32,000 nt of DNA from Candidatus Electrothrix sp. GW3-4 (GTDB taxonomy: Bacteria; Desulfobacterota; Desulfobulbia; Desulfobulbales; Desulfobulbaceae), in NCBI RefSeq assembly GCF_037902255.1, contig NZ_CP147990.1, forward strand, positions 3,900,001 to 3,932,000. The letters are read 5' to 3'. How positions within the stretch are numbered: position 1 is the first letter of the stretch; every line of letters starts with the position of its first letter. A program made the position numbers and the translations under genes. Positions 1-24,537 of this stretch are shown piece by piece. The notes under the pieces were generated by a model that saw nothing but the letters and a program-made list of their open reading frames with translations, did no database searches and had not been told where the DNA came from.

Positions 1-250
1 CAAGCTCAGGCTCCTGCTCCAGCATGTCCACAGTAAAGCCCTCGGAGAGAAGGCTCTCGCCCTCAAAGTCCTTATCCTTGCCCGCCAGGATACGGAGCAA
101 GGTACTCTTTCCTGAGCCGTTCAGGCCCAGCACCCCGATCTTGGCGCCGTAGAAATAGGAGAGGGAGATATCTTTAATAATAACTTGATCTTTGTACTTT
201 TTACTGACCTTAATCATCGAATAGATGATCTTATTCGCTTCTTGTGCCAT
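1..250 (-). CDS. ettA: Energy-dependent translational throttle EttA (ABC-F ATPase); N-terminal 83 codons only, gene continues off the left edge
   Basis: Reverse-complement translation from the ATG at 250-248 gives MAQEANKIIYSMIKVSKKYKDQVIIKDISLSYFYGAKIGVLGLNGSGKSTLLRILAGKDKDFEGE... It has Walker A GLNGSGKST and is colinear with the E. coli EttA/YjjK N-terminus as I recall it. It is absent from the ORF track because the window edge truncates it. Confidence 0.85.
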   Translation of the reverse strand, partial: MAQEANKIIYSMIKVSKKYKDQVIIKDISLSYFYGAKIGVLGLNGSGKSTLLRILAGKDKDFEGESLLSEGFTVDMLEQEPEL

Positions 251-595
251 ATGCTCCGTTCTGTATTGAATGAGGGTATTGACCGCCTTGGGTCGCTCGA
301 ACTTGTTGTGCTCGTCCGGCTGGAACCAAGCGGCTGGAAGATTTGTTCAGCGTTACTATCTGTTCATAAACTGTATCTTGTTTTTTTGCGAAGGATTTCT
401 GCATGAATTTTGGGGGATATCCTTTGTTGTGGGATAGCACAGATCGCTGGCATTCATTGCTTGAATTTTCTAAGGACATGCGATAGATAAAGAGTTTTAG
501 CTATCGTTTCAACCAGTTTTCCCTCTCGTTCGGAGCCTTATCGCAGAGACATTTGATACGTTTTGCCTGTAACTTCCGAGAAAAGCAATGCTTTT

Positions 596-1125
596 TGTTT
601 GCAAATAAAAGGTTGTTTGTTATCAAGAGAAGGTTATTAGTAACAAACAAGGAGTTGTTTGTAGCTAACAGAAGGTTGTTTGTAATAAATAAGGAGTTGT
701 TTGTAGCTAACAGAAGGTTGTTGATAACCAACGAAGGAGTGTTTGTTAACAAGAGAAGGTTGTTTGTAACAAACAAGGAGCTGTTTGCTATAAACAGAAG
801 GTGTTTGATAACCAACGAAGGAGTGTTTGCTCCTAGCAAAAGATTGTTTGCTACCAACAAAAGGTTGTTGTTAATCAACGAAGGAGTGTTTGCTATCAAC
901 GGAAGGTGTTTGATAACCAACGAAGGAGTGTTTGCTATCAACGAAAGGTGTTTGATAACCAACGAGGGAATGTTTGCTCATGACAGAAGGTTGTCAGCTA
1001 TTAACAAAAGGTTCTTGGTAGCCAACAAGGGGTTGTTTACTCCTGATAGAAAGCTCTCAGCTATCAAGAAGAATATTTTGTTTAACAGCAAGAATCTATT
1101 GTTTGTCCGTAAAGGTGTGTTACTG
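596..1125. repeat. Degenerate tandem array of about 25 units of 21 bp (alternating 20/22 in places), organised as about 12 copies of a 42-bp higher-order unit. Consensus TGTTTG-yTAnC-AAC-rAAGG(AG)T.
   Basis: TGTTTG-like anchors occur at 614, 635, 656, 677, 698, 719, 740, 761, 782, 802, 824, 845, 866, 887, 907, 929, 949, 971, 992, 1013, 1034 and 1055. Near-identical 42-mers lie at 782-823, 887-928 and 929-970 (TGTTTGCTATCAACGGAAGGTGTTTGATAACCAACGAAGGAG). Units alternate ...AAGGT and ...AAGGAG endings. Many units are imperfect palindromes, for example TTGTTTGTAACAAACAA at 760-776. Confidence 0.9.
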
Positions 1126-1208
1126 AGTAAACACTAGCATAAAAAAACTCCGCTCACTAACAATATTGCACAGAAAAACAATATATTACCAAAGGGGCTT
1201 CGATTTAA

Positions 1209-3302
1209 ATGAATAAGTCTGGTTCAGGGTCAGCAACAAATGCAGGGATAGATTACCAGCAAAGAGTCTCTGCATTATTTCTAATAGCTTTACATTCTCA
1301 GTTCGACATCTCACAATTACTTAACATTAATGACGAATTAAATATTAAGTATGTTTCATACGAGACTGCAGAAAATGTAGATGATCTCAATATTATTTGC
1401 GATGACAACAAAATTTTATACATGCAAATTAAGCGCAAAATTGCGCTTTCCAAAAAAGACGGCTCTGAATTCCAAAAAGTAATTGAACAGTTTCTTTCTC
1501 AATATATCGCTGAACAAAAAATATCTGATCGGTTTCTTCTCATCACTACGTCAGACACATCAAAAAGTATTAAATATGATCTCAAAAAAATTTTTGACAG
1601 TATTAGGCTTAACGATACTGGATTTAAAGCGAACCCTTGCAATAATAACGAAGAAAAAACTTATTCAATCTTAGAAACAGTTTTTAATAACTCATATAAA
1701 AAACTGACCCAACATGAACCATCAAATAAAGATTTTGTTATATTTTGCAAGCAAGTATTCGTGTCTATTATTGATGTAGAAACCGATATGACAACAGAGA
1801 AAATAGCTGTCATGCTTTTGCACAGTGAAGGAATTAATATGCCATCACTGGTTTGGAACTACTTAGTATCCCAGAGTCTATATTATGCAACTAACAGATT
1901 ATCTTTAAACCGTGATGGTATAAATAACACTCTAGCAAAATATCAAGCCAAAAAGCCTACTCAGAAAGAATTGGAAATTCAATTAAATGAACTTTTGAAA
2001 CCGGTAATACTTAATGTTTCAGAGCTTGCAACAGGAAAGGATGTTTTCATAGTAGAGTCTTTTGTCGAAGGTCTTGATTACGCCATAGTTGAACTATTTA
2101 GATTCGATAGTAATGGAGAGAAAAGAGTAAAATTTGAGGACGACTATGTGCTATTAGGGGATAAAAAAGCAAAAGTTATTCGTCGTTTTTCCACAATGGT
2201 CGGCCTTCAAAGATATATGGAAGAAAACCAAGAATATTATAAAAATAAGAAAGTAGTAGTCCTTGAGTCGAGAGATATTGATACTGTTGAAGAAACCGAA
2301 GTGGCAAGAAAATATAAAGAATATTGCCATGAGCTACTCAACAAAAATACCACCCTTATCAATTGCATTCACTCTGGCAAAAGTTGCTTGTCAGCTTCAT
2401 GTTATTTCGTTGAAGTTGACTACCCAAACTATCCTCCTGCAATTGGCATGGTTCGAGAGGAATGCTTGTTGCCACTTGATCGAATTCTCGGTAAGCCAAT
2501 AATTCCGCAAGAAGATATTCGGTTCCCAACCGAAATAAACATATCGAGATGGATGAGTCTTCTCAATAAAGGTCAAGGGTTATTAAAATCATTACCTGAA
2601 GTCAAGAAAGATTTGAAATGTAAAGTGTTACAAGTGGGCTGGAATGAAGATAATCAAGTGTATGCTGAATACAACTATTGCATAAGAAAAAACTTGGAGG
2701 ATGGGAGTTCAGACTATCTCTGTTCCAGAGGAAAAATTCAACGTTTTTCTAAATATGAAGCCGATATTCAGGCAGATTGCCTTAACTCTGATATCTTAAA
2801 GAATAAAAACAATGATAATCGGCTTTGTGTGTCCTCGAAAAACAGGAGGGTTATATCTCGTCCTTTTTTAATGAAAATCAAAGAAAACGGTGAGGAAGTT
2901 CTGGAAGTCAGATCCTTTGAAGTCTGCAAGTATAGTCAACTGTTGGGAGATCTATATAATAATTGCGATAATTATTATGCCCCTCTCTGTTTTGTCATAC
3001 ACAAAGATACTGAACAAATATTTGTAATCGGCGATATAGTCCCTCTTATTTCAAACCCTTTCCAACTATATTTATTCATTGAAAATTGGGGGGAAGCAGG
3101 TTTCATATTTGATGACCATTCATTGTCTGTTATCCATAATGACTATGAATTTGATAAACATATGAGAGATATTATCAATGACAGCCTATTTCCAATAATT
3201 GATCCAAAGTTTACGTCTCAACAGGAATTGGAAGAAGGCATTGTTATTAGAGAAATAAATAAATTTATCGAAGAACAAAAAAATGCACAACCAGATGCTT
3301 AA
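1209..3302 (+). CDS. 697-aa protein with an N-terminal Cap4/DUF4297-like PD-(D/E)xK nuclease-type domain and a large unassigned C-terminal region; candidate defence effector or toxin
   Basis: This is a long uninterrupted ORF in very AT-rich DNA, where random ORFs should be short. The N-terminus reads GSATNAGIDYQQRVSALFLI...YETAENVDDLNIICDDNKILYMQIKRK. That gives a G-x-x-YQ opening followed by an E...DD...QxK arrangement, which is typical of Cap4-type dsDNA nuclease domains as I remember them. A Cys/His cluster follows: CHELLNKNTTLINCIHSGKSCLSASC. Residues ~240-697 have no motif I recognise. The function is an inference. Confidence 0.8.
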   Translation: MNKSGSGSATNAGIDYQQRVSALFLIALHSQFDISQLLNINDELNIKYVSYETAENVDDLNIICDDNKILYMQIKRKIALSKKDGSEFQKVIEQFLSQYIAEQKISDRFLLITTSDTSKSIKYDLKKIFDSIRLNDTGFKANPCNNNEEKTYSILETVFNNSYKKLTQHEPSNKDFVIFCKQVFVSIIDVETDMTTEKIAVMLLHSEGINMPSLVWNYLVSQSLYYATNRLSLNRDGINNTLAKYQAKKPTQKELEIQLNELLKPVILNVSELATGKDVFIVESFVEGLDYAIVELFRFDSNGEKRVKFEDDYVLLGDKKAKVIRRFSTMVGLQRYMEENQEYYKNKKVVVLESRDIDTVEETEVARKYKEYCHELLNKNTTLINCIHSGKSCLSASCYFVEVDYPNYPPAIGMVREECLLPLDRILGKPIIPQEDIRFPTEINISRWMSLLNKGQGLLKSLPEVKKDLKCKVLQVGWNEDNQVYAEYNYCIRKNLEDGSSDYLCSRGKIQRFSKYEADIQADCLNSDILKNKNNDNRLCVSSKNRRVISRPFLMKIKENGEEVLEVRSFEVCKYSQLLGDLYNNCDNYYAPLCFVIHKDTEQIFVIGDIVPLISNPFQLYLFIENWGEAGFIFDDHSLSVIHNDYEFDKHMRDIINDSLFPIIDPKFTSQQELEEGIVIREINKFIEEQKNAQPDA

Positions 3303-3495
3303 CTTGACTACAACCAATCCTTGGTTGCGCTGATGCGATCAGTTATGGCGGTGCAGCAGGTTAGCCACTCATGAATAAGTACCAATATTCGGTATGGTAA
3401 CAACATATGCAGAACAAGTCAATTCAGGCGACGACAAGAAAGCACTGATGCAGGTCGTTAGATATCGACAACCCCTCAAACAACGGAGCATTACA

Positions 3496-3936
3496 ATGGA
3501 CGACTACGAAAAATGGGAACAAGATTGCAAAAAGATCAAAAAAACGAACAAAGGCCTATTAAACGAATTTGAGGCATGGCTCAAAGCTTCCGGTCTCTCG
3601 GAAAAAACGATAAAGAAGCATCTTGAAAACGTTGACTTTTACCTCAATGAATATCTGCTGTACGAGGATGCAATTGAAGCAAAAGACGGTGCTGGCGATG
3701 TCGGTATGTTTCTGGGTTATTGGTTTATAAAAAAGGCAATGTGGGCAAGCAAATCAAGCATCAAGAGCAACGCAACAAGCCTGAAAAAGTTTTACACCTT
3801 TATGCATGAGAAAGGTTTGATAAAGAAAGAAGAACTGACAGATCTCAAACAAAGGATAAAAGAAGAGATGCCGGAATGGTTGGCAACCTTGGCCCGCTAT
3901 GATGACCCCTCAGTTGAAGATGTTTGGTTCGAGTAG
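3496..3936 (+). CDS. Stand-alone phage-integrase N-terminal SAM-like (core-binding) domain protein with no catalytic domain
   Basis: FEAWLKASGLSEKTIKKHLENVDFYLNEYL ... IKSNATSLKKFYTFMHEKGLI matches the two-helix-pair pattern of tyrosine-recombinase core-binding domains (GLSxxTIxxHLxxVxxF ... LKxFYxFxxxxGLI). I prefer the start at ATG 3496 because GGAG lies 7 nt upstream. The ORF track starts at 3394, which has no SD. No R..HxxR..Y catalytic domain follows. Confidence 0.6.
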   Translation: MDDYEKWEQDCKKIKKTNKGLLNEFEAWLKASGLSEKTIKKHLENVDFYLNEYLLYEDAIEAKDGAGDVGMFLGYWFIKKAMWASKSSIKSNATSLKKFYTFMHEKGLIKKEELTDLKQRIKEEMPEWLATLARYDDPSVEDVWFE

Positions 3937-4004
3937 AACTCATCAACAAGATCTGGACGAAACGCCTGTCCTGTTATCAACACCTTGTACAAAGTAGAAA
4001 AGAA

Positions 4005-4487
4005 ATGCCATACTCATTTTTTCATAGTCGTTTTCCTAAAGTTGCAGAGCGAGAAACCAGGTCAGTCACCGTGTATGATCCTTCAGAGTTTAATCTCCCA
4101 CCAGCAGATTATGCCTTTCTCGAAATGTTCTGTGACGAACCCGATTGTGACTGTCGTCGGGTATTTTTCACTGTAATATCTTCTCGTGAAGATGACGTTA
4201 AGGCGGTTATTTCCTGGGGGTGGGAAGACCAAGTTTTTTATACGAAGTGGATAAAGGATAGCGATCCTGATGTTATCAAGGAACTGATGGGCCCAATACT
4301 GAATATAATGAGTCCACAATCGGCCCAGGCCCCAGCTCTTCTCAAGCTCTTCCAAGAGGTATTACTCCCAGACACGGCCTATATCGAAAGAATAAAACGA
4401 CACTATGTCATGTTTCGTCAAACAGTTGACAAGAAGAGCAAAAAAAAGTTCCGCAGAAGGAAAGGGAAGATAAAAAGGATAAAATAA
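4005..4487 (+). CDS. Hypothetical protein with a CDEPDCDCRRV Cys motif and a poly-basic C-terminal tail
   Basis: The ORF is open from TTG 3924, which overlaps the previous gene. The first ATG is at 4005 (MPYSFFHSRFPKV...). The motif is YAFLEMFCDEPDCDCRRVFFTV, and the tail is KKSKKKFRRRKGKIKRIK. I recognise no family. The start is uncertain (3924 or 4005). Confidence 0.55.
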   Translation: MPYSFFHSRFPKVAERETRSVTVYDPSEFNLPPADYAFLEMFCDEPDCDCRRVFFTVISSREDDVKAVISWGWEDQVFYTKWIKDSDPDVIKELMGPILNIMSPQSAQAPALLKLFQEVLLPDTAYIERIKRHYVMFRQTVDKKSKKKFRRRKGKIKRIK

Positions 4488-4536
4488 GCAGTCACTTCAG
4501 CAGACAGGAAAAACGTTTACCCGGCAAAAAATCCCC

Positions 4537-4983
4537 ATGACTCCCCCATCATTTTCCGATCTCACCCTGGAGGACCTCCTCCCCCAACGCGGCGATATGC
4601 TGCTGATCCAGGAGGTCCTCGAAGTAGACAGAAGCGAAGCCCGTACCCTGTGCCGCCCCAAGCCTTCCTGGCCTATGGCCGATGCAAAGGGCGTCCCTCC
4701 CCTCATCCTGGTCGAGCTAGCTGCTCAGACCGCCGGGGTGTGCAACGGTTGGGACCGAATCCAGAGCAAAGGAAAAGACTCAGACCCGATGGGCTGGATC
4801 GTCGGGATCAAAAAAGCAGAGTTTTCCATTGACCATCTCCCCTTTGCCTGCGATATTATCAGCTGGGCAAAAAACACCTTCTGCTTTGACAATCTCCGGG
4901 AAGTGGCGTGCGAACAGCACATCGACGGCCAATTGATCAGCAGGATGACACTTCAGCTCTTTCAGGCAAAAACAGATGAGTAA
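4537..4983 (+). CDS. Hotdog-fold 3-hydroxyacyl-ACP dehydratase-like protein (FabA/FabZ-related, of the type found in aryl-polyene-like lipid clusters)
   Basis: LLPQRGDMLLIQEVLEVD...PPLILVELAAQTAGV is the typical LLPHRxPMLLxDxV...E.xAQ pattern of hotdog dehydratases. It overlaps the next gene by 8 nt (ATGAGTAA). Confidence 0.7.
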   Translation: MTPPSFSDLTLEDLLPQRGDMLLIQEVLEVDRSEARTLCRPKPSWPMADAKGVPPLILVELAAQTAGVCNGWDRIQSKGKDSDPMGWIVGIKKAEFSIDHLPFACDIISWAKNTFCFDNLREVACEQHIDGQLISRMTLQLFQAKTDE

Positions 4984-5719
4984 CGAACAGGCAAAAGAAC
5001 AGGAAACCGCCATCGTGACTGGCGGCAGCAAGGGAATCGGCAGGGCCATCTGCCTAGAACTGGCCCAAAACGGCTACTACGTTGTTATCAATTATATGGG
5101 CGATAAGAACGGGGCCGAGCAGACCCTGGTCCAGGTTGAAGAACAGGGCGGCCAGGGAGAAATCTGCCAATTCGATATCCGGGACCGGGAAAAGGTCGAA
5201 CAGATCATTGAGGATATCGCCCAACGACGGGGCAGCATTGATGTCCTGGTCAATAATGCAGGCATTATTGCCGACGGCCTTTTCATGATGATGAAGCCAG
5301 AAAACTGGGACGCTGTCCTTGATACCAGCCTGAACGGATTTTATAATATGACCCGTCCGGTCCTGGAAAAGATGGTGCGCAAACGCAAAGGCGCCATCAT
5401 CTCCATCTCCTCAGCCAGTTCCCTGGTGCCCAACAGGGGCCAAGCCAATTATGCCGCTGCCAAGGCAGGCTTGAACGCGGCCAGCAGAACCGTAGCCACC
5501 GAGGTAGCCCGCCTGGGTATTCGGGTCAATGTGGTTGCCCCAGGCCTCATTGAAACGGATATGATCCAGGAGGTGCCTAAGGACCATATCAAGACCATGA
5601 TCCCTATGGCCCGGATCGGCAGACCAGAGGAAGTTGCCCAGGTCGTCAGTTTTCTCTGCTCAGATGCGGCTTCCTATGTGACCGGTCAGGTCATCTCGGT
5701 CAACGGAGGCATGATCTAG
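4976..5719 (+). CDS. fabG: 3-oxoacyl-ACP reductase (SDR family, FabG-like)
   Basis: It has TGGSKGIGRAI (TGxxxGIG), NNAG, a Ser...YAAAKAG catalytic triad context and the PGLIETDM motif. Length is 247 aa. Confidence 0.9.
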   Translation: MSNEQAKEQETAIVTGGSKGIGRAICLELAQNGYYVVINYMGDKNGAEQTLVQVEEQGGQGEICQFDIRDREKVEQIIEDIAQRRGSIDVLVNNAGIIADGLFMMMKPENWDAVLDTSLNGFYNMTRPVLEKMVRKRKGAIISISSASSLVPNRGQANYAAAKAGLNAASRTVATEVARLGIRVNVVAPGLIETDMIQEVPKDHIKTMIPMARIGRPEEVAQVVSFLCSDAASYVTGQVISVNGGMI

Positions 5720-6345
5720 TGCTACGCATCTTCCTTTTTCTCTGTCTTTTCTGTCTTAGCGGCTCTGCTATCTCTGCCGTATCGCCCTTTCTTTCCTCTG
5801 GGATTGCAGCCACCGCCCCCTCAGAAGCAGGAGACTTCCGGATTGAGTCTATCCAGGCGGATTTCACCCAGGAAAAGCACCTGAAAATGCTGACCAAGCC
5901 CATTATCTCGACTGGCAAACTGCTCTTCCAGGCCCCTGCTTCTCTACGTTGGGAGTACACCAGCCCCTTTGCCTCTATTCTGCTCATGCACGAGGGCAAG
6001 GTCAAACGCTTCATCGAGCGTGATGGTGTTTTTCAGGAAGAAACAGGTATGCAGCTTGATGCAATGCAGGTGGTCTTGACCGAGATCAGCAGCTGGCTTG
6101 ATGGCCGTTTTACCGACAATGAGCTCTTCGCCGTCTCCTTTCCTGACGACAAGACCGTTGAGCTGACCCCAAAAGAACAGGCCTTTGCCCATCTGATCAA
6201 ACGAATTGAGTTGAAGCTCTCTGGGCAGAAGGGCTTGCTGGATCAGGTGACTATTACCGAAGGACCAGGGGCAAGCACGATTATGCGCTTCAGCAACAGG
6301 GTGCTGAATCAGGCAATCCCAGCCACCTCATTCACGCAAAGATGA
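5719..6345 (+). CDS. LolA-like outer-membrane lipoprotein carrier family protein
   Basis: A signal peptide (MLRIFLFLCLFCLSGSAISA) is followed by FTQEKHLKMLTKPIISTGKLLFQAPASLRWEY, the LolA-family signature region. The GTG start overlaps the fabG stop by 1 nt. Confidence 0.7.
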   Translation: MLRIFLFLCLFCLSGSAISAVSPFLSSGIAATAPSEAGDFRIESIQADFTQEKHLKMLTKPIISTGKLLFQAPASLRWEYTSPFASILLMHEGKVKRFIERDGVFQEETGMQLDAMQVVLTEISSWLDGRFTDNELFAVSFPDDKTVELTPKEQAFAHLIKRIELKLSGQKGLLDQVTITEGPGASTIMRFSNRVLNQAIPATSFTQR

Positions 6346-7049
6346 CACGAGTTCCCTTTCTTCTCCTCCCTGTACTTATACTCCTTGCCTGCTCCTTCTC
6401 CCTCACTGCCTGCGGGGGCAAGCAGACACTCCCTCTCCTCACCAAGGCCGACTCGCTCTCCGAAGAACCCGCTTCCTGCACCTCAATCTTTCCCCAGGGT
6501 GCATGGCAGTTTGTCCACTCCATTGATTTCACTTTGAAGCACGGTGGTGGCTCCACCGTCATCGGGGTAACCTCCTTAGGCCCTGATAGCCTGGAATGTG
6601 CCCTCGTCACCCCAGAAGGCTTCACCTTGTTTTCAGGCACCTTGGATCGGGAAAATAATTTTGCAGTCACACGGGCAGTTTCCCCGTTTGATAACCCGTC
6701 CTTTGCTCTGGGCCTGCTGGAAGACCTGCAAGCCATCTTCCGCAAACCTGTTGGGGAACTACAGCAAGGGTCTCTCAGCGAGCCCCCTGCCCCGGTCTGT
6801 CGATACACCACAAACGATGAAAAGGTGACCGATATCTTGTCGGATAAAAACGCTGAAACCTGCTGGCAGGTCCGCAATTACGCGCCTGATAAAGAGCTTA
6901 TACGCGCTATCGCCGCTCGATCCTGCCAGGCAGCAGGCCCAGGATCGGGTTCGGCCTCCATCCCGCAACAACTGGAACTCCAGACCTCTGGGCCAACCGG
7001 TTATACCTTAAAGATGAAGCTCATCTCTGCTGAACATCTACCGAACTAA
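6342..7049 (+). CDS. Putative lipoprotein, possibly of the DUF3261-like type that accompanies LolA-like genes in lipid clusters
   Basis: It has a lipobox LTAC-GG after a hydrophobic leader (MTRVPFLLLPVLILLACSFSLTACGG). An ATGA overlap links it to the upstream gene. The family assignment is from memory only. Confidence 0.6.
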   Translation: MTRVPFLLLPVLILLACSFSLTACGGKQTLPLLTKADSLSEEPASCTSIFPQGAWQFVHSIDFTLKHGGGSTVIGVTSLGPDSLECALVTPEGFTLFSGTLDRENNFAVTRAVSPFDNPSFALGLLEDLQAIFRKPVGELQQGSLSEPPAPVCRYTTNDEKVTDILSDKNAETCWQVRNYAPDKELIRAIAARSCQAAGPGSGSASIPQQLELQTSGPTGYTLKMKLISAEHLPN

Positions 7050-7164: not shown

Positions 7165-7193
7165 TTGACTTCACCATTTAATTTGATAATAAT
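7165..7193 (+). promoter_or_regulatory. Candidate sigma70-type promoter for the 131-aa gene
   Basis: TTGACT at 7165-7170 is followed 14-17 nt later by the AT-rich GATAATAATAAT block (7185-7196), which offers several -10 registers. Confidence 0.35.
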
Positions 7194-7236
7194 AATTACA
7201 ACAAGTCAAAATAGAGAACAAACAGGGAGGTGTCCC

Positions 7237-7632
7237 ATGTTAAACCTTGCAGAACTGCGAAAAAACAGGATATTGGTCAACAGCATTGACTGGGCCATGA
7301 CTCCAGAAAAGGCAGTGGAAATGTATCTGGAATGGGGAACTGGCTGGATTCGGGGGAATGATTTCGTCTCAAGCTCCGATGACGAGAGCTATTATTTCGT
7401 CATCTATGACTGGGAGACAGAGCCACCGCAGGTTACCCTGGTCCATCGCACCCTTGGCGGTGCGGAAGAGTTGGCAAAAATTGAAGTCCCCAAAGAACTC
7501 TTTGACGCTGCCTGCCAAGAAGACGGGAGACGCCCTGGTGGGACGGTCCATCGCCTGAACAGAGGCCTTCAGGAATGGTTAAACACCCGCCTTAAGGGGC
7601 CCCCTATTGAGTTTTTCAACATAGAACAGTAA
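7237..7632 (+). CDS. Hypothetical cytoplasmic protein (131 aa)
   Basis: A strong SD (GGGAGG, 7225-7230) lies 6 nt upstream of ATG 7237, and a clean terminator lies downstream. I recognise no motif (MLNLAELRKNRILVNSIDWAMTPEKAVEMYLEWGTGW...). The ORF-track start at 7165 is unlikely. Confidence 0.6.
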   Translation: MLNLAELRKNRILVNSIDWAMTPEKAVEMYLEWGTGWIRGNDFVSSSDDESYYFVIYDWETEPPQVTLVHRTLGGAEELAKIEVPKELFDAACQEDGRRPGGTVHRLNRGLQEWLNTRLKGPPIEFFNIEQ

Positions 7633-7698: not shown

Positions 7699-10122
7699 TT
7701 ACTCTATCTTATTACATTGCGACAAACATTGACTCATACATTTTTCAGGTCGGTCTGTACATTTATTTCCACAGTATTCTTGACAACATACCCGTTTATC
7801 AAGACCGCTTGTCAGCGGATCTCTCAATTGCAGCACGTTAGTGGCTCTGGTAATTGTTGCAGCACAAATATTCAGCTGCCCCTGCCCTTTTCCAGAACGA
7901 AACTCGGAACCGGAAACAGTAACTGTTTCCCCAACTTCAAAATGAAAGACTTCTCGACATTGCTTGATCAAATTCTCGGGAAATACATGGATAACATAGG
8001 AGCCCGATGAGGTCTCTACGTCAAGATGTAATCCGCTCTGCTTGGTCCAAGGTGGAGATTTTATTGCAACCTTCCTGATCTGCCCGCTAATCTCCGTTAG
8101 GGGCGTCTTCCATGGTTGATTGCATGAGGATTCGCGTACTGATTCACTTATTGATTCACTTATTGGTTGAACCTGAACGGCTCCCTGGCCTTCCCCGGCA
8201 TCTGAAGGCTGAACCTTTTCTTCACCATCTTCTGCTGAAGAAGGAGCGACCGGAAGAGAAGTTTCGACCTCTTCCGTTTCCTCAGCCTGAGACGCAAGCG
8301 GACTCATCTCATCTGAGGAAACATTTTTTTCAAGTGGTGGTGTGACCTCTGCTGTTGTGACCTTATCCCCCTTTTCGATCACTGCGGGCTGATCTGCCTC
8401 AGGAATGGCAGGCAGGGAAGGAGCGCCCTCCTTCTCTTCACTGGTCTGCATCTCCGCTTGAGCAACAGCCTCACCAGCAGGCAGCTTTTCCCCTGCTTCT
8501 GCTTCAGATACACTGGCGTTTTCCCCGTTCCCAGTTGTTAGAGATTCAGGTTGGAACTTCTGCCCAGTAACCTCAGATGCGGGGATGGAAGGTACGACAG
8601 GAGCAGGGTCTTTCTCCGCACGGCCCTGTATCTCTGGTTGAGATGTCTCATAAGATGCCGTAACACTCTCTCCATCCCCTGTCGATTCTGTCGATTGGGG
8701 CTCATCCTGAACCTCTTGCTCCTTCTTCTCGACGACAGCTCTGGAGGTCGTGGCAGGAGCCATCGCTTTTGTTTCACTCCGCTGAGGAGTAGCTTGCTCA
8801 GTTTTGCTGACAGCAACCTTCTTCTTGGCCTTGAGCACTCTTATCTCATGAAGAGCCGAATTCTCATGACCAGATTCTTCAGGTTCCTCAGGAAGGGGCA
8901 GAATTTTCTCGTCAACCTCCCTCACTGGGGGAGAAACGACAGAGGCAGGGACAGCTCCTCCTGTTTCTACGCTATGACGTCCCAATGCTTCATCAATATC
9001 ATCAGCAAGGAGGTCTCCTTCTTTTTCTTCCTGCTCAGACGATACATATCTGAAATCAAGGTCTGTCAACTGCCGGGAATAACGCAGGCGGGCCAATACC
9101 CTGCCCTGCCGATCATACAGGCTCAGAATATCACCGCTGATGGTATATCTTCGCGTCGTATCCAAGGCCTGCAAGAAGGCATCCTCCACCTCCATCCCAA
9201 CAGGGCAGGCCATACGGGTTGATGCAATCCGACTGAAGACAAAATCATTATCAGCAAAAAGCCAGCTTCCGCTAAAATTATTACAGCCTGCAAAGCCCTG
9301 AATCAGCTGTTCACCACCTTGGACCTTCAAAAAAGGTGGTTTGCTCACACTCTCCGGCTCCAGCGACTCTCCACCTATCTCTGTCAAATACCACCTATTA
9401 TTTAAAATCGTTGCAATACGGCGCCCTTTCCCCTTACAGAAATGGTATGGATCAATATGAACGGAACGAACCGCAATCAGACGATCTCCCCGACCTGCTT
9501 GAGAGGAAAGGCGAATATCCAGAGTTACAAAAAGCGATTCTGCCCGACCATGCAAGATATCTTGATACGCCTGCTCTACCTCGGCAGCTCTCCCCCTGGT
9601 GACGAGAGGGAACCTCGCCCCACTCAGGCATTCCCGAAAGACCCCACGACCGCGTTTGCGGGTGTACATCCCCTGCATACGCACTATCCCCTCATAGCGG
9701 GGCTCTGTATGCGTCAAGGTAAAGTCATAGCGAACAAGGGAGGGCATCATTCCGCCGGAGACCTTGATAAGCTTCAGGGTTTGCTGCCCTGTAACCGCCA
9801 AGATCCGGCTCGCCTTGTCATAACTGGTCAAACGAAGAAGTTTCTTTGCTTCGCTATATCTCCATACGCCGATCTCTGCCTGAGTCACCTTACGACCAGA
9901 TGCATTTCTTGCCATCCTTTCCATCTGCAAAAAATACATACCATCGGGCCGCAGCACCAACTCAAACGATGTCGAAGGACATCGCTTCAGGTCGAGATCA
10001 GCCCGAAAGACAGCAGGAAGAGGATGAACGAACGTTCTGTCCTTCAGAACATGCTTTTGTTGCGGAGCACATCCTGCCAGCAACAGGACCAAGAGAGAAA
10101 AAAGGCGGAGATATGTACGCAT
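7699..10122 (-). CDS. Large composite lipoprotein: NlpE-N-like region, META (HslJ-like) domain, ~285-aa acidic low-complexity linker, C-terminal OB-like domain and a Cys-rich tail
   Basis: The lipobox is LLLAGC (MRTYLRLFSLLVLLLAGCAPQQ). The META-type segment reads NNRWYLTEIGG...FLKVQGGEQLIQGFAGCNNFSGSW...TRMACP...EDAFLQALDTTRRYTISGDILSLYD. An E/P/S/T/A-rich stretch covers residues ~355-640. The C-terminus has GLHLDVETSSGSYVIHVFPE...VGETVTVSGSEF and ends in CCQEYCGNKCTDRPEKCMSQCLSQC. Confidence 0.8.
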   Translation of the reverse strand: MRTYLRLFSLLVLLLAGCAPQQKHVLKDRTFVHPLPAVFRADLDLKRCPSTSFELVLRPDGMYFLQMERMARNASGRKVTQAEIGVWRYSEAKKLLRLTSYDKASRILAVTGQQTLKLIKVSGGMMPSLVRYDFTLTHTEPRYEGIVRMQGMYTRKRGRGVFRECLSGARFPLVTRGRAAEVEQAYQDILHGRAESLFVTLDIRLSSQAGRGDRLIAVRSVHIDPYHFCKGKGRRIATILNNRWYLTEIGGESLEPESVSKPPFLKVQGGEQLIQGFAGCNNFSGSWLFADNDFVFSRIASTRMACPVGMEVEDAFLQALDTTRRYTISGDILSLYDRQGRVLARLRYSRQLTDLDFRYVSSEQEEKEGDLLADDIDEALGRHSVETGGAVPASVVSPPVREVDEKILPLPEEPEESGHENSALHEIRVLKAKKKVAVSKTEQATPQRSETKAMAPATTSRAVVEKKEQEVQDEPQSTESTGDGESVTASYETSQPEIQGRAEKDPAPVVPSIPASEVTGQKFQPESLTTGNGENASVSEAEAGEKLPAGEAVAQAEMQTSEEKEGAPSLPAIPEADQPAVIEKGDKVTTAEVTPPLEKNVSSDEMSPLASQAEETEEVETSLPVAPSSAEDGEEKVQPSDAGEGQGAVQVQPISESISESVRESSCNQPWKTPLTEISGQIRKVAIKSPPWTKQSGLHLDVETSSGSYVIHVFPENLIKQCREVFHFEVGETVTVSGSEFRSGKGQGQLNICAATITRATNVLQLRDPLTSGLDKRVCCQEYCGNKCTDRPEKCMSQCLSQCNKIE

Positions 10123-15424: not shown

Positions 15425-16132
15425 TCATAGAAAAGTATATTGCTGCAGAAGATCGGCATGATCCAGGCCCTTGGTGGGGCCGTCATAAAAGATTGTTCGA
15501 TTGACTGCGGTAACGGCGTCGCAAACCCTTGAGATCATATCCATGCTATGGCAGACCATAAGGATGGTGATCCCCTGCTCATCTCGCAGATTGATAAGCA
15601 TCTCTTCAAAATGACGGATACCGACTTCATCAATATTACTGGCCGGTTCATCAAGGAGAAGAAGCTCCGGCTTCGGGCTCAGGGCCTGGGCCAGCAGGAC
15701 CCTGCGAAACTCCCCGCCGGAAAGCTGGCCCACACAGCGATCAATCAGATGGGCACAGTCTGTGGCGGTCAGCAGCTCCTCAATCTTTGCCCGCACCGCC
15801 CTCCGGCGCCCGAGAAAGACCGGCATCTTTTTCAGCATCAGAAAAAGAAAATCAAAGACCGTGATCGGCACGGAATGGTCGAACTCCAGGAACTGGGGCA
15901 CATAGCCGACCCGGCTGCTTTCCCGAAAGAGAAAACGGATGGTCCCCTTATGGGGCATCCCCCCCATGACGCTCCGCATCAGGGTGGTCTTGCCCGCTCC
16001 GTTGGGGCCGGTCAGGGCATGAATATGTCCTTTTCTGACCCGCAGGTTAATATCATCAAGGATTCGGTTTCCCCGCAGGGAAACCGAAAGCTTATCTATT
16101 TCAAGCAGATTTTGTTCTTCAGGACTGCTCAT
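15425..16132 (-). CDS. Metal ABC transporter ATP-binding protein (ZnuC/MntA-like)
   Basis: Walker A is GPNGAGKTT, the signature is LSGGEFRRV, Walker B is LLLLDEP and the H-loop is CHSM. Confidence 0.9.
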   Translation of the reverse strand: MSSPEEQNLLEIDKLSVSLRGNRILDDINLRVRKGHIHALTGPNGAGKTTLMRSVMGGMPHKGTIRFLFRESSRVGYVPQFLEFDHSVPITVFDFLFLMLKKMPVFLGRRRAVRAKIEELLTATDCAHLIDRCVGQLSGGEFRRVLLAQALSPKPELLLLDEPASNIDEVGIRHFEEMLINLRDEQGITILMVCHSMDMISRVCDAVTAVNRTIFYDGPTKGLDHADLLQQYTFL

Positions 16133-17502
16133 TATTGGTCCTTATCCTGCTGTTGCGGTGCTTCCGGAGCAAGATTCTCCAGCATCCCTTTCTGCATATC
16201 CTGCATCTGCTGATCCATACGTTCTTTAACCTGCTGCTGCTGCATTGCTGGCAGGGTTTCTTGCAGGCCCTCCTGCATGGCACCCTGCATCTGCGCCTTA
16301 GTATCCCGAAGCTGCTGATTCATCCGTTTATTCATCTGCTTCTGCTGCATTGTCGGAATGGAATCTTTCAGTTTTTCCTGCACAGTCTTCTGCATCTGCT
16401 TGGTGGTATCCTGAACTTGCTGATTCATCCGTTCAGACATCTGCTTCTGCTGCATGGTCGGCACAGTATCTTTAAGATTTTCTTGGACAGAGTTCTGCAT
16501 TTGTTGCGAGGCATTCTGCATCTGCCGCGACATATTATCCTGCATCTGTCCTGACATATCTCCTGGATTGCTTCCTCCAGACACCTCGGTCAGGGCCGCA
16601 ACAATGGCATCAATGTTTCTCCGCATGGCCTGCTCGAAAAATTCCTTGGTGTACTCCCCGTTGGAAATATGGGAGAGGGCATAGAGACGGCAGCCAGTCT
16701 CTTTATAGATAATATCGATATATTTCTTTTCATAATCCAGCTCACCGAACAGCACATTCACCTTGGCCCGCTTGATCCTTTTAATAGTGTCCTGGAGCTG
16801 ACGTGCGCTGGGCTTGACCCCATGTCTCGGCTGCACCACAGCACTGACCTCGATACCGAGTTCCTGAAAGAGATAAGAATATCCGTCATGCACAGTGGCG
16901 ATACGCAGCTTATTGAGGTCAAGCATATCAATCCGCATTAAAGCGGACTGGAGCAGATTACGCAACTTCATCGAATACGCACGGACATTTCTGACAAACT
17001 CACCAGCCTGATCTGGACAAAGTCTCCCCAGTTTTCTGGCAATCATCTGCATCTGCTGAATCGCGCCGGTGATAGCGATATAGGTATGGCTGTTGTACGA
17101 TACCTTGCCGTCGTTCCCTTCAAAATCGTAATGCTTACCAAAGACGGGAATCAGAGGGAGCCCTTTGCTGGTGTCGATAACCACCAGCTTGTCATTTTCA
17201 ATGGCCTTGAGCATCGGTTTGATGAACTCATCATGCCCTACCCCATTGACAATGACCACATCCAGGTTTTCCAACTTCTTCATGTCCGAGGGCAGCGGCT
17301 GATAGGCATGAGGATCCGAGCCTGGGGGAATTATTGAGGTTACATTTGCCTCATCACCAACGATATTTTTGGTCCAGGAATAATACGGGTGCAGAGAAGC
17401 CCCTATATTCAAACGACACTTTCCCTCTTGGGCATATGCCTGCATTGAGGAGAGGACAAGGCATAAAACGAGCACAAACTGAGGACGCAGTATTTTTTCC
17501 AT
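16132..17502 (-). CDS. Metal ABC transporter substrate-binding protein (ZnuA/TroA cluster) with a ~145-aa Met/Gln-rich C-terminal repeat extension
   Basis: It has a signal peptide, then GSDPHAYQPLPSD, VHDGYSYLFQELG and KVNVLFGE motifs of TroA/ZnuA-type binding proteins across residues ~1-305. A tail with three ~35-aa repeats follows. Confidence 0.88.
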   Translation of the reverse strand: MEKILRPQFVLVLCLVLSSMQAYAQEGKCRLNIGASLHPYYSWTKNIVGDEANVTSIIPPGSDPHAYQPLPSDMKKLENLDVVIVNGVGHDEFIKPMLKAIENDKLVVIDTSKGLPLIPVFGKHYDFEGNDGKVSYNSHTYIAITGAIQQMQMIARKLGRLCPDQAGEFVRNVRAYSMKLRNLLQSALMRIDMLDLNKLRIATVHDGYSYLFQELGIEVSAVVQPRHGVKPSARQLQDTIKRIKRAKVNVLFGELDYEKKYIDIIYKETGCRLYALSHISNGEYTKEFFEQAMRRNIDAIVAALTEVSGGSNPGDMSGQMQDNMSRQMQNASQQMQNSVQENLKDTVPTMQQKQMSERMNQQVQDTTKQMQKTVQEKLKDSIPTMQQKQMNKRMNQQLRDTKAQMQGAMQEGLQETLPAMQQQQVKERMDQQMQDMQKGMLENLAPEAPQQQDKDQ

Positions 17503-24450: not shown

Positions 24451-24537
24451 TGGTGCCGAAGGGGAGAGTCGAACTCCCACGAGCGTACGCCCACTAGACC
24501 CTGAACCTAGCGCGTCTACCAATTCCGCCACTTCGGC
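24451..24537 (-). tRNA. tRNA-Leu (anticodon CAG), type II with a long variable arm, CCA encoded
   Basis: The reverse complement is GCCGAAGTGGCGGAATTGGTAGACGCGCTAGGTTCAGGGTCTAGTGGGCGTACGCTCGTGGGAGTTCGACTCTCCCCTTCGGCACCA. The acceptor stem is GCCGAAG/CTTCGGC. The anticodon stem is CTAGG/TCTAG with loop TTCAGGG. The variable arm is 15 nt. The T-arm is GGGAG-TTCGACT-CTCCC. Confidence 0.93.

Follow-up and report, generated by a model that had tools for sequence, protein, structure and literature searches.

The window analysed here is a stretch of 32,000 nucleotides from the cable bacterium Candidatus Electrothrix sp. GW3-4 (contig NZ_CP147990.1, positions 3,900,001 to 3,932,000 of the forward strand), and all coordinates refer to it unless another locus is named. 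Between ettA and a pair of small genes for proteins of 146 and 160 amino acids (aa) it carries a gene for a 697-aa protein, which is probably an undescribed stand-alone defence nuclease of the Cap4 type. We give a probability of about 0.6 to the reading that this gene encodes a stand-alone, sensor-activated single-gene anti-phage nuclease residing in a defence hotspot. An earlier note, made from the sequence alone, had proposed an undescribed defence or toxin locus of four elements. The main gene would indeed encode a nuclease whose type has been met in anti-phage systems only, but the multi-element locus did not survive the comparison with related genomes. The nuclease-like open reading frame (ORF) announced in that note is real. 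The protein and its two parts are as follows.

1209..3302, plus strand: 697-aa protein, candidate stand-alone defence nuclease (ORF; 77 full-length homologues; AlphaFold model).
1209..1958, plus strand: predicted N-terminal Cap4/DUF4297-type PD-(D/E)xK nuclease domain, residues 1 to ~250 (Foldseek, PADLOC).
2010..3299, plus strand: C-terminal region, residues 268–697, presumed sensor or regulatory part with an unrecognised fold (model confidence 84.8).

The 697-aa protein has 77 full-length homologues, the closest of them in Ca. Electrothrix marina, and contains no Pfam domain. The AlphaFold model, built on 25 of these homologues, has a predicted local distance difference test score (pLDDT) of 84. 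In a Foldseek search of the PDB the nuclease domain matched Avs3 (8dgc), Cap4 (6wan, 6vm6 and 6wam), LmuA (9nxx and 9hqx) and HerA-DUF (9c1m), with probabilities of 0.96–1.0 and E-values from 7e-5 to 4e-3 over ~250–310 aligned N-terminal columns. The matched proteins, Avs3, Cap4, LmuA and HerA-DUF4297, are effectors of experimentally shown anti-phage systems. At the sequence level, positions 2–259 (of 1657) of the PADLOC profile PDC-M54A match residues 5–244 (E=1e-27).

Twelve positions of this domain are invariant in 25 sequences of the family with identity down to 26%: N11, G13, I14, Q17, Q18, R19, E52, D58, D59, Q73, K75 and R76. Among them, E52, D58, D59, Q73 and K75 appear to form an intact DD...QxK active-site motif, consistent with the DUF4297/Cap4 triad; the equivalence was read from the motif rather than from a residue-by-residue structural superposition. 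The catalytic triad of DUF4297 is D41/E59/K61 and resembles that of Cap4, and such domains are reported to be widespread in immune systems and to be joined to C-terminal domains that vary (10.1101/2024.10.24.620088).

Residues 268–697 were also modelled separately (pLDDT 84.8). The resulting model has no significant match in the PDB (best E=0.49) and no match among the viral structures of BFVD (best E=0.077). No SAVED or CARF domain was matched by it in the PDB search. The 697-aa sequence also lacks a nucleoside triphosphatase (NTPase) module: neither Pfam nor PADLOC matched one, and a Walker A motif is absent. The C-terminal region is conserved as strongly as the nuclease domain. It contains beta-rich modules and, in most homologues, a Zn-ribbon-like segment with the pattern CxxC...HxxC.

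We propose that the C-terminal region keeps the nuclease inactive and serves as its sensor or regulator. An infection cue would then lead to oligomerisation, and the paired nuclease domains would cut DNA, resulting in abortive infection or in the phage DNA being destroyed directly. This sensor-release mechanism is suggested by analogy with all characterised relatives of the nuclease domain. If confirmed, the protein would represent a compact single-gene anti-phage nuclease with a sensor region of ~430 residues that has no known structural relative, that is, a new way in which a much-reused effector, the Cap4-type nuclease, is coupled to the sensing of infection.

The strongest alternative is that the protein is a restriction-type enzyme acting alone (Type IV-like or structure-specific); its C-terminal domains would then bind DNA directly and its Cap4-type domain would cut it, with neither sensing of infection nor abortive infection. 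The fold data, as far as they can be judged from models, fit a sensor nuclease and a Type IV-like enzyme alike. A restriction-type activity agrees with a gene that stands by itself and lacks a methyltransferase or ATPase partner, with the Zn-ribbon-like segment and the beta-rich modules of the C-terminal region, and with the fact that in the related genome AR5 the same chromosomal slot has taken up a restriction enzyme. On the other hand, SRA, EVE/YTH, winged-helix and other DNA-binding folds were not detected in the C-terminal model, and the characterised Cap4-type domains that were matched are all regulated effectors that become active on oligomerisation or when the complex is remodelled. 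We consider a restriction-type enzyme unlikely, while ranking it above the other alternatives.

Comparison with the known systems shows what the 697-aa protein shares with them and what it lacks. With Cap4 of CBASS (anti-phage signalling that is based on cyclic oligonucleotides), a fusion of DUF4297 and SAVED, it shares the N-terminal PD-(D/E)xK fold (Foldseek probability 1.0), a D...(E/Q)xK-type motif and the layout of an N-terminal nuclease followed by a C-terminal regulatory region. It differs from Cap4 in having no match to Pfam DUF4297 and, as judged from the model, no SAVED or CARF domain; no CD-NTase is encoded in positions 1–7000 of the window, and none is conserved at 68 related loci. 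Avs3 provides the best structural match of the nuclease domain (8dgc_A, E=7e-5), and both proteins would be single-protein sensor-effector designs, but Avs3 has ~2000 residues with a STAND/P-loop NTPase and a tetratricopeptide-repeat (TPR) sensor, and the 697-aa protein has neither. LmuA of Lamassu and HerA-DUF4297 have a similar nuclease fold (9nxx, 9hqx and 9c1m), and in both systems the effector is inactive until the assembly changes. No LmuB/SMC partner was found in the window or conserved at the related loci, and no HerA ATPase partner is conserved beside the 697-aa family. By sequence, the closest relative of residues 5–244 is PDC-M54A. PDC-M54 is a multi-gene candidate system with a component A of ~1650 aa, and only the effector domain is common, as the match is restricted to positions 2–259 of 1657. 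The statement of the earlier note that the locus corresponds to no named defence system is therefore borne out by PADLOC, which matches only the N-terminal domain of this candidate. Literature searches brought up no account of the 697-aa family or of PDC-M54, and none of defence systems or arrays in Electrothrix.

A number of observations weigh against the assignment of the 697-aa protein as an active anti-phage nuclease. Pfam DUF4297 does not match it at E<=1, nor any of 25 family members at E<=0.01, and no other model of Pfam, NCBIfam or PHROG matched the protein. Since these family models fail, the nuclease assignment rests on the fold similarity, one PADLOC profile and the motif. A search of PDB sequences with the family profile produced chance matches to Hha only (E about 0.07). 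The defence role of the family is read from sequences and models, and the sensor role of the C-terminal region is what we infer for it. In the 68 loci with relatives of the gene, most immediate neighbours are ordinary metabolic genes, and about a tenth match PADLOC models. The PADLOC-DB version used dates from 2023, so that the family may already be named in newer catalogues.

The state of the GW3-4 copy is a further point. In the Electrothrix clade, the Zn-ribbon-like segment reads CIHSGKSC...REEC (2364–2465, residues 386–419), and of the four putative Zn ligands two have been lost. A second assembly of GW3-4, from another sequencing run, has the gene called as 603 aa (locus L085, 445–2256); at 99.9% identity, that assembly has five indels in 6.5 kb, which are either assembly errors or a real inactivating polymorphism. 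Given the lost ligands and the frameshifts, full activity of the GW3-4 copy is not guaranteed. These two features, together with the degenerate state of a conserved element upstream of the gene (see below), are what one would expect if the horizontally acquired gene had here lost its function and were decaying. Yet the ORF is full length with all the invariant residues of the family, four relatives from Electrothrix and Desulfobulbales (56–93% identity) are full length as well, and the five indels may be assembly errors. Moreover, the half of the gene that diverges from the E. marina copy shows an excess of synonymous differences per site (over ~800 nt, 48 synonymous differences and 52 in codons that change the amino acid). 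A decayed remnant is therefore regarded as very improbable.

The distribution of the family was studied in one genome per species over 185,579 species. Relatives of the 697-aa protein were found at 68 loci in many phyla, including Bacteroidota, Gammaproteobacteria, Actinomycetota, Bacillota, Cyanobacteria, Campylobacterota and Desulfobacterota, with Bacillus and Pseudomonas among the hosts. All ORFs within 5 kb of a homologue were clustered, and no ORF family was common to more than five of the 68 loci. Neither the 146-aa nor the 160-aa gene occurs at any of these loci, and no upstream tandem array does. The gene is thus patchily distributed and stands alone. The neighbourhood of the 697-aa homologues, whose conservation the earlier note had taken as a mark of a defence locus, is not conserved, and this indicates a single-gene system rather than no system. 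The immediate neighbours are heterogeneous, with a minority of defence genes: IetS, DrmC, a type I methyltransferase, PycC, PifA and PDC-M07A.

The gene also moves horizontally as a unit of its own size, as seen from the following segment.

1185..3275, plus strand: gene-sized cassette common to Ca. Electrothrix marina, where it occupies another chromosomal site (blastn).

The cassette is 94.3% identical over 2091 nt to positions 7977–10067 of the E. marina locus (L002), and blastn found nothing else shared between the two. The E. marina copy adjoins PDC-M07A (E=5e-201) and PIN and MNT genes. The similarity between the two copies (1209–3275 of the window versus 8001–10067 of L002) is a mosaic: from 1209 to ~2000 the sequences are 12–15% divergent, whereas 2109–3158 contains four differences in ~1050 positions (99.6% identity). 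The break falls where the nuclease domain meets the C-terminal region, at about residue 265. This pattern suggests a recent exchange of one module, and its position at the domain boundary fits the modular exchange expected of defence genes.

The gene-sized movement between loci and the patchy distribution would also suit a selfish or toxin-like nuclease of mobile DNA, engaged in addiction, inter-element competition or homing with no anti-phage benefit. The location of the E. marina copy beside PIN and MNT genes of the toxin-antitoxin type, and a full-length copy on an Agrobacterium plasmid, point in the same direction. Among 72,556 plasmid records, in which the family is otherwise nearly absent, that plasmid copy is the only full-length one, and 50,697 phage records contain no member of the family. 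An antitoxin-like or immunity partner is not conserved alongside the gene, and no transposase or integrase travels with it. With these observations on the two sides, a selfish nuclease is rated as distinctly improbable, and an anti-phage nuclease is retained as the preferred interpretation.

The position of the gene in the chromosome was analysed by comparing the window with the same region in E. aestuarii (locus L070), Electrothrix sp. GM3_4 (L072), Electrothrix sp. AR5 (L086) and an ENA contig (L073). The loci were retrieved via homologues of the 160-aa protein and aligned with blastn. The features bordering the gene are listed below.

1..250, minus strand: 5' end of ettA (ABC-F translational throttle), conserved left flank; the gene starts at 250, with the translation MAQEANKIIYSMIKVSKKYKDQ...
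251..505, no strand: conserved region upstream of ettA, end of the left syntenic flank (blastn).
588..1112, plus strand: tandem array of ~24 units with a strict 21-nt period and a 42-nt super-unit (Tandem Repeats Finder score up to 438).
1113..1184, plus strand: degenerate remnant of a conserved ~115-bp element (alignments).
3276..3445, no strand: window-specific spacer between the cassette and the right flank (no homology in five loci).
3496..3936, plus strand: 146-aa protein with a SAM-like (core-binding) tyrosine-recombinase domain only, backbone gene (Pfam Phage_int_SAM_5, E=1e-5).
4005..4487, plus strand: 160-aa protein ending in a basic tail, C43, C48, C50 and H133 being invariant, backbone gene (359 homologues).
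4537..4983, plus strand: ApeP-like dehydratase, opening the lipid-module operon on the right (Pfam ApeP-like, E=3e-5; PF22817).

On the left, positions 1–499/510 align with E. aestuarii (88%), GM3_4 (76%) and AR5 (75%), and the reverse-strand translation MAQEANKIIYSMIKVSKKYKDQ... matches a 561-aa ABC_tran/ABC_tran_Xtn gene in these three genomes. On the right, the conserved flank begins at 3446–3478 and is 83–94% identical at the nucleotide level to the related Electrothrix. Between these common flanks the window, E. aestuarii, GM3_4 and AR5 carry different cargo.

GW3-4 (window): the repeat array and the 697-aa gene.
E. aestuarii (L070): a 329-aa protein, a repeat array, a 930-aa P-loop/TPR protein and a 79-aa ORF.
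GM3_4 (L072): a small helix-turn-helix protein, a 916-aa protein with Mrr_cat and an nSTAND1 NTPase, and a scramblase-like protein.
AR5 (L086): a Type IIG restriction-modification enzyme (PADLOC, E=5e-179) and a transposase-like ORF.

The interval from ettA to the 146-aa/160-aa pair is a defence-gene hotspot in Electrothrix, and known defence genes are among its occupants. The 329-aa protein of E. aestuarii has, by eye, an N-terminal hydrophobic segment resembling a signal peptide. As in other defence islands and hotspots between core genes, the flanks (ettA and the 146-aa/160-aa pair) are conserved and the cargo differs from genome to genome. What differs here is the absence of an integrase, a tRNA gene and direct repeats: no integrase is encoded at the locus, no direct repeats flank the cassette, and no tRNA target lies at the slot, the only tRNA being at 24451–24537. 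A conserved element of ~115 bp abuts the cargo instead. The finding places a defence hotspot in cable bacteria, a group not grown in pure culture and of whose phage biology, to our knowledge, essentially nothing is known.

In the ENA contig (L073, 1788–3735), a complete pair of the candidate defence system HEC-01, comprising an AAA_15 ATPase and a DUF4276 protein (E=1e-197 and 1e-95), is inserted between two backbone genes, the 146-aa gene and a 157-aa gene. It marks a second insertion point in the neighbourhood, downstream of the 146-aa gene.

The limits of the variable segment differ from those proposed before. The earlier note had described an AT-rich island at 500–4490, with flanks above 50% G+C, 1140–3300 at about one third and 3400–4490 intermediate, and had interpreted the two steps as a mosaic of two acquisitions. 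The composition was estimated correctly, as windowed G+C is ~0.50–0.59 in the flanks (ettA and from 4500 on), 0.29–0.40 over 1050–3300 and 0.40–0.46 over 3300–4500. An AT-rich, horizontally moving accessory insert does lie between ettA and the lipid operon, but by synteny its limits are placed at about 505–3450, and 3450–4490 is taken to be conserved backbone. As this part is syntenic with four other Electrothrix genomes, the second G+C step does not reflect a second acquisition. Within the AT-rich stretch the single foreign gene is that of the 697-aa protein (1209–3302), whose cargo G+C is ~0.33 compared to at least 0.50 in the flanks. The spacer at 3276–3445 has no homology in E. marina (L002), L070, L072, L073 or L086. 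Scans with Pfam, PADLOC, NCBIfam and PHROGs agree with the note in finding no transposase, full integrase, methyltransferase, ATPase or cyclase in 500–4490.

The two genes at the right edge were counted by the note as parts of the locus, one as an integrase fragment and the other as a Cys-motif protein with a basic tail; their ORFs comprise 180 and 187 aa. The former has a SAM-like N-terminal domain only (Phage_int_SAM_5, E=1e-5), matching only the N-terminal part of XerD. The catalytic domain of tyrosine recombinases (R-H-R-Y) is absent from this protein, which has no more than 146 aa; the gene that follows it is of another kind. Its true start is most likely at 3496, as indicated by the orthologues, which all begin with MDDYEK; GGAG is found 9 nt upstream of ATG 3496, and interspecies homology extends from 3446–3478. 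The gene is 84–91% identical in L070, L072 and L073, and the product has the same N-terminus in L086. The Cys-motif protein is present, with 160 aa rather than 187: it starts at 4005 and is 100% identical to an annotated protein of Electrothrix GW3-4. Its family comprises 359 homologues (53–100% identity, 70% mean column identity), in which the motif EMxCDExxCDCRRxFF and H133 are invariant and the tail is rich in Lys and Arg. No match to it was found in Pfam, NCBIfam, PHROGs, PADLOC or PDB. In other Desulfobacterota the family is located amid housekeeping genes without the 146-aa gene, and the 160-aa protein is probably a Zn-binding core protein. Both genes are assigned to the backbone, by their sequence context, and not to the nuclease system.

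These data bear on the proposal that the array, the 697-aa protein, the SAM-like protein and the Cys-motif protein form one multi-component defence or toxin locus. The elements are closely spaced and have lower G+C than the flanks, and they are co-directional as the note stated, all being on the plus strand. Against this, the 146-aa and 160-aa genes are found in all Electrothrix examined whatever the cargo, and in four other genomes they accompany an entirely different one. Both are missing at the loci of the 68 relatives, including the 94%-identical E. marina copy, and so are upstream arrays; besides, the array family also occurs at an unrelated locus beside an AraC-type regulator gene. A joint locus is hence extremely improbable, the least likely of all the alternatives considered, and a single-gene nuclease is preferred.

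The ~115-bp element (115–170 bp) abuts the cargo in E. aestuarii (L070, 4050–4215), GM3_4 (L072, 3330–3475) and AR5 (L086, 2650–2760), and also occurs in E. marina, at a different locus (L002, 7860–7976). A usable seed for it is TCAATATCGGAATAAGTG. The core of the element is ...TCAATATCGGAATAAGTGGA...CAATAGCATGGAAAGTTTCCACTTATTAACACTGTTAG, an exact 18-mer is present in all four loci (L002, L070, L072 and L086), and three ATAAGTGG motifs are found, two direct and one inverted. The similarity stops at the same nucleotide in all four genomes: ...CACTGTTAG (...CTGTTAG). In AR5 the cargo gene adjoining the element is on the opposite strand, and therefore the element is not simply a cargo promoter. 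The consensus fold is weak (−6 kcal/mol), with little conserved structure. The element could serve recombination as its site, or else be a homology arm that is portable, and a conserved short element at the cargo edge could explain the exchange of cassettes. A bolder reading combines two claims: that the element is the recombination site of an unrecognised cassette-exchange mechanism, by which Electrothrix chromosomes would receive single defence genes at several loci and in which the 146-aa protein, the array or both would take part, and that the 697-aa protein is the first of a new kind of single-protein immune sensor, with a C-terminal fold that recognises a phage cue. We consider this combination rather improbable.

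The tandem array that the note had described as phased is real, with a strict 21-nt period. Its unit contains the dyad TTGTT-N7-AACAA centred on unit position 13, with 61% complementarity compared to at most 0.49 at other centres, and the single strand folds better than shuffled controls (z=−4.65). An orthologous array of ~12 units is present in E. aestuarii at the same relative position (L070, 3717–3930), and none is found in the slots of GM3_4 and AR5. In each of two related metagenome contigs (L083, 2389–2573; L084, about 434–600), an array of the same family has an AraC-type regulator gene on one side and a 127-aa gene on the other; the copy number differs by ~3 units between the contigs, and a further array is present in E. 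rattekaaiensis. Because the family is also found at the unrelated AraC locus and its copy number is variable, the array is regarded, on its sequence and placement, as a lineage-specific minisatellite and not as a component of the nuclease gene. Operator-like or centromere-like binding of a protein by the array is possible; the region in the window and the surroundings of the L070 and L083 arrays contained no ParA/ParB-type or Rep gene. Rfam yielded no RNA family for the array or the ~115-bp element (window 1–5000 and four related loci), and a scan for promoters and terminators was uninformative. An exact 21-mer of the array had one unrelated match in metagenomes.

That the array is a gene coding for heptad repeats (NxxLFVx) seems unlikely. 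The ORF at 553–1137 has no ATG or ribosome-binding site, both strands are open, the copy number varies, the units have the dyad, the corresponding ORF in L083 runs into the next gene, and the searches gave only repeat-derived ORFs. Third-codon conservation in the array is 0.67 versus 0.76–0.78 at the other two codon positions, a slight difference in variability. The array is most likely non-coding.

In unrelated genomes, including a metagenome-assembled genome of Terriglobia, there are ORFs of perfect 7-residue repeats, NKxFFVx or NSPLFVA (P0201, P0202, P0208 and P0210). Their presence implies similar 21-bp arrays of the AACAA/TTGTT type outside Electrothrix.

To the right of the backbone pair, the lipid module (ApeP-like protein, ketoreductase and LolA; 4537–7049) differs between genomes as well. 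Both GW3-4 and E. aestuarii have it. AR5 has no lipid module, and its 157-aa gene is directly followed by a homologue of 7165–7632; in GM3_4 an aminotransferase gene stands where the module would be. Farther along the window, a 105-bp tandem repeat (16207–16490; 2.7 copies, 75% matches) is located within a long minus-strand ORF at 16132–17502.

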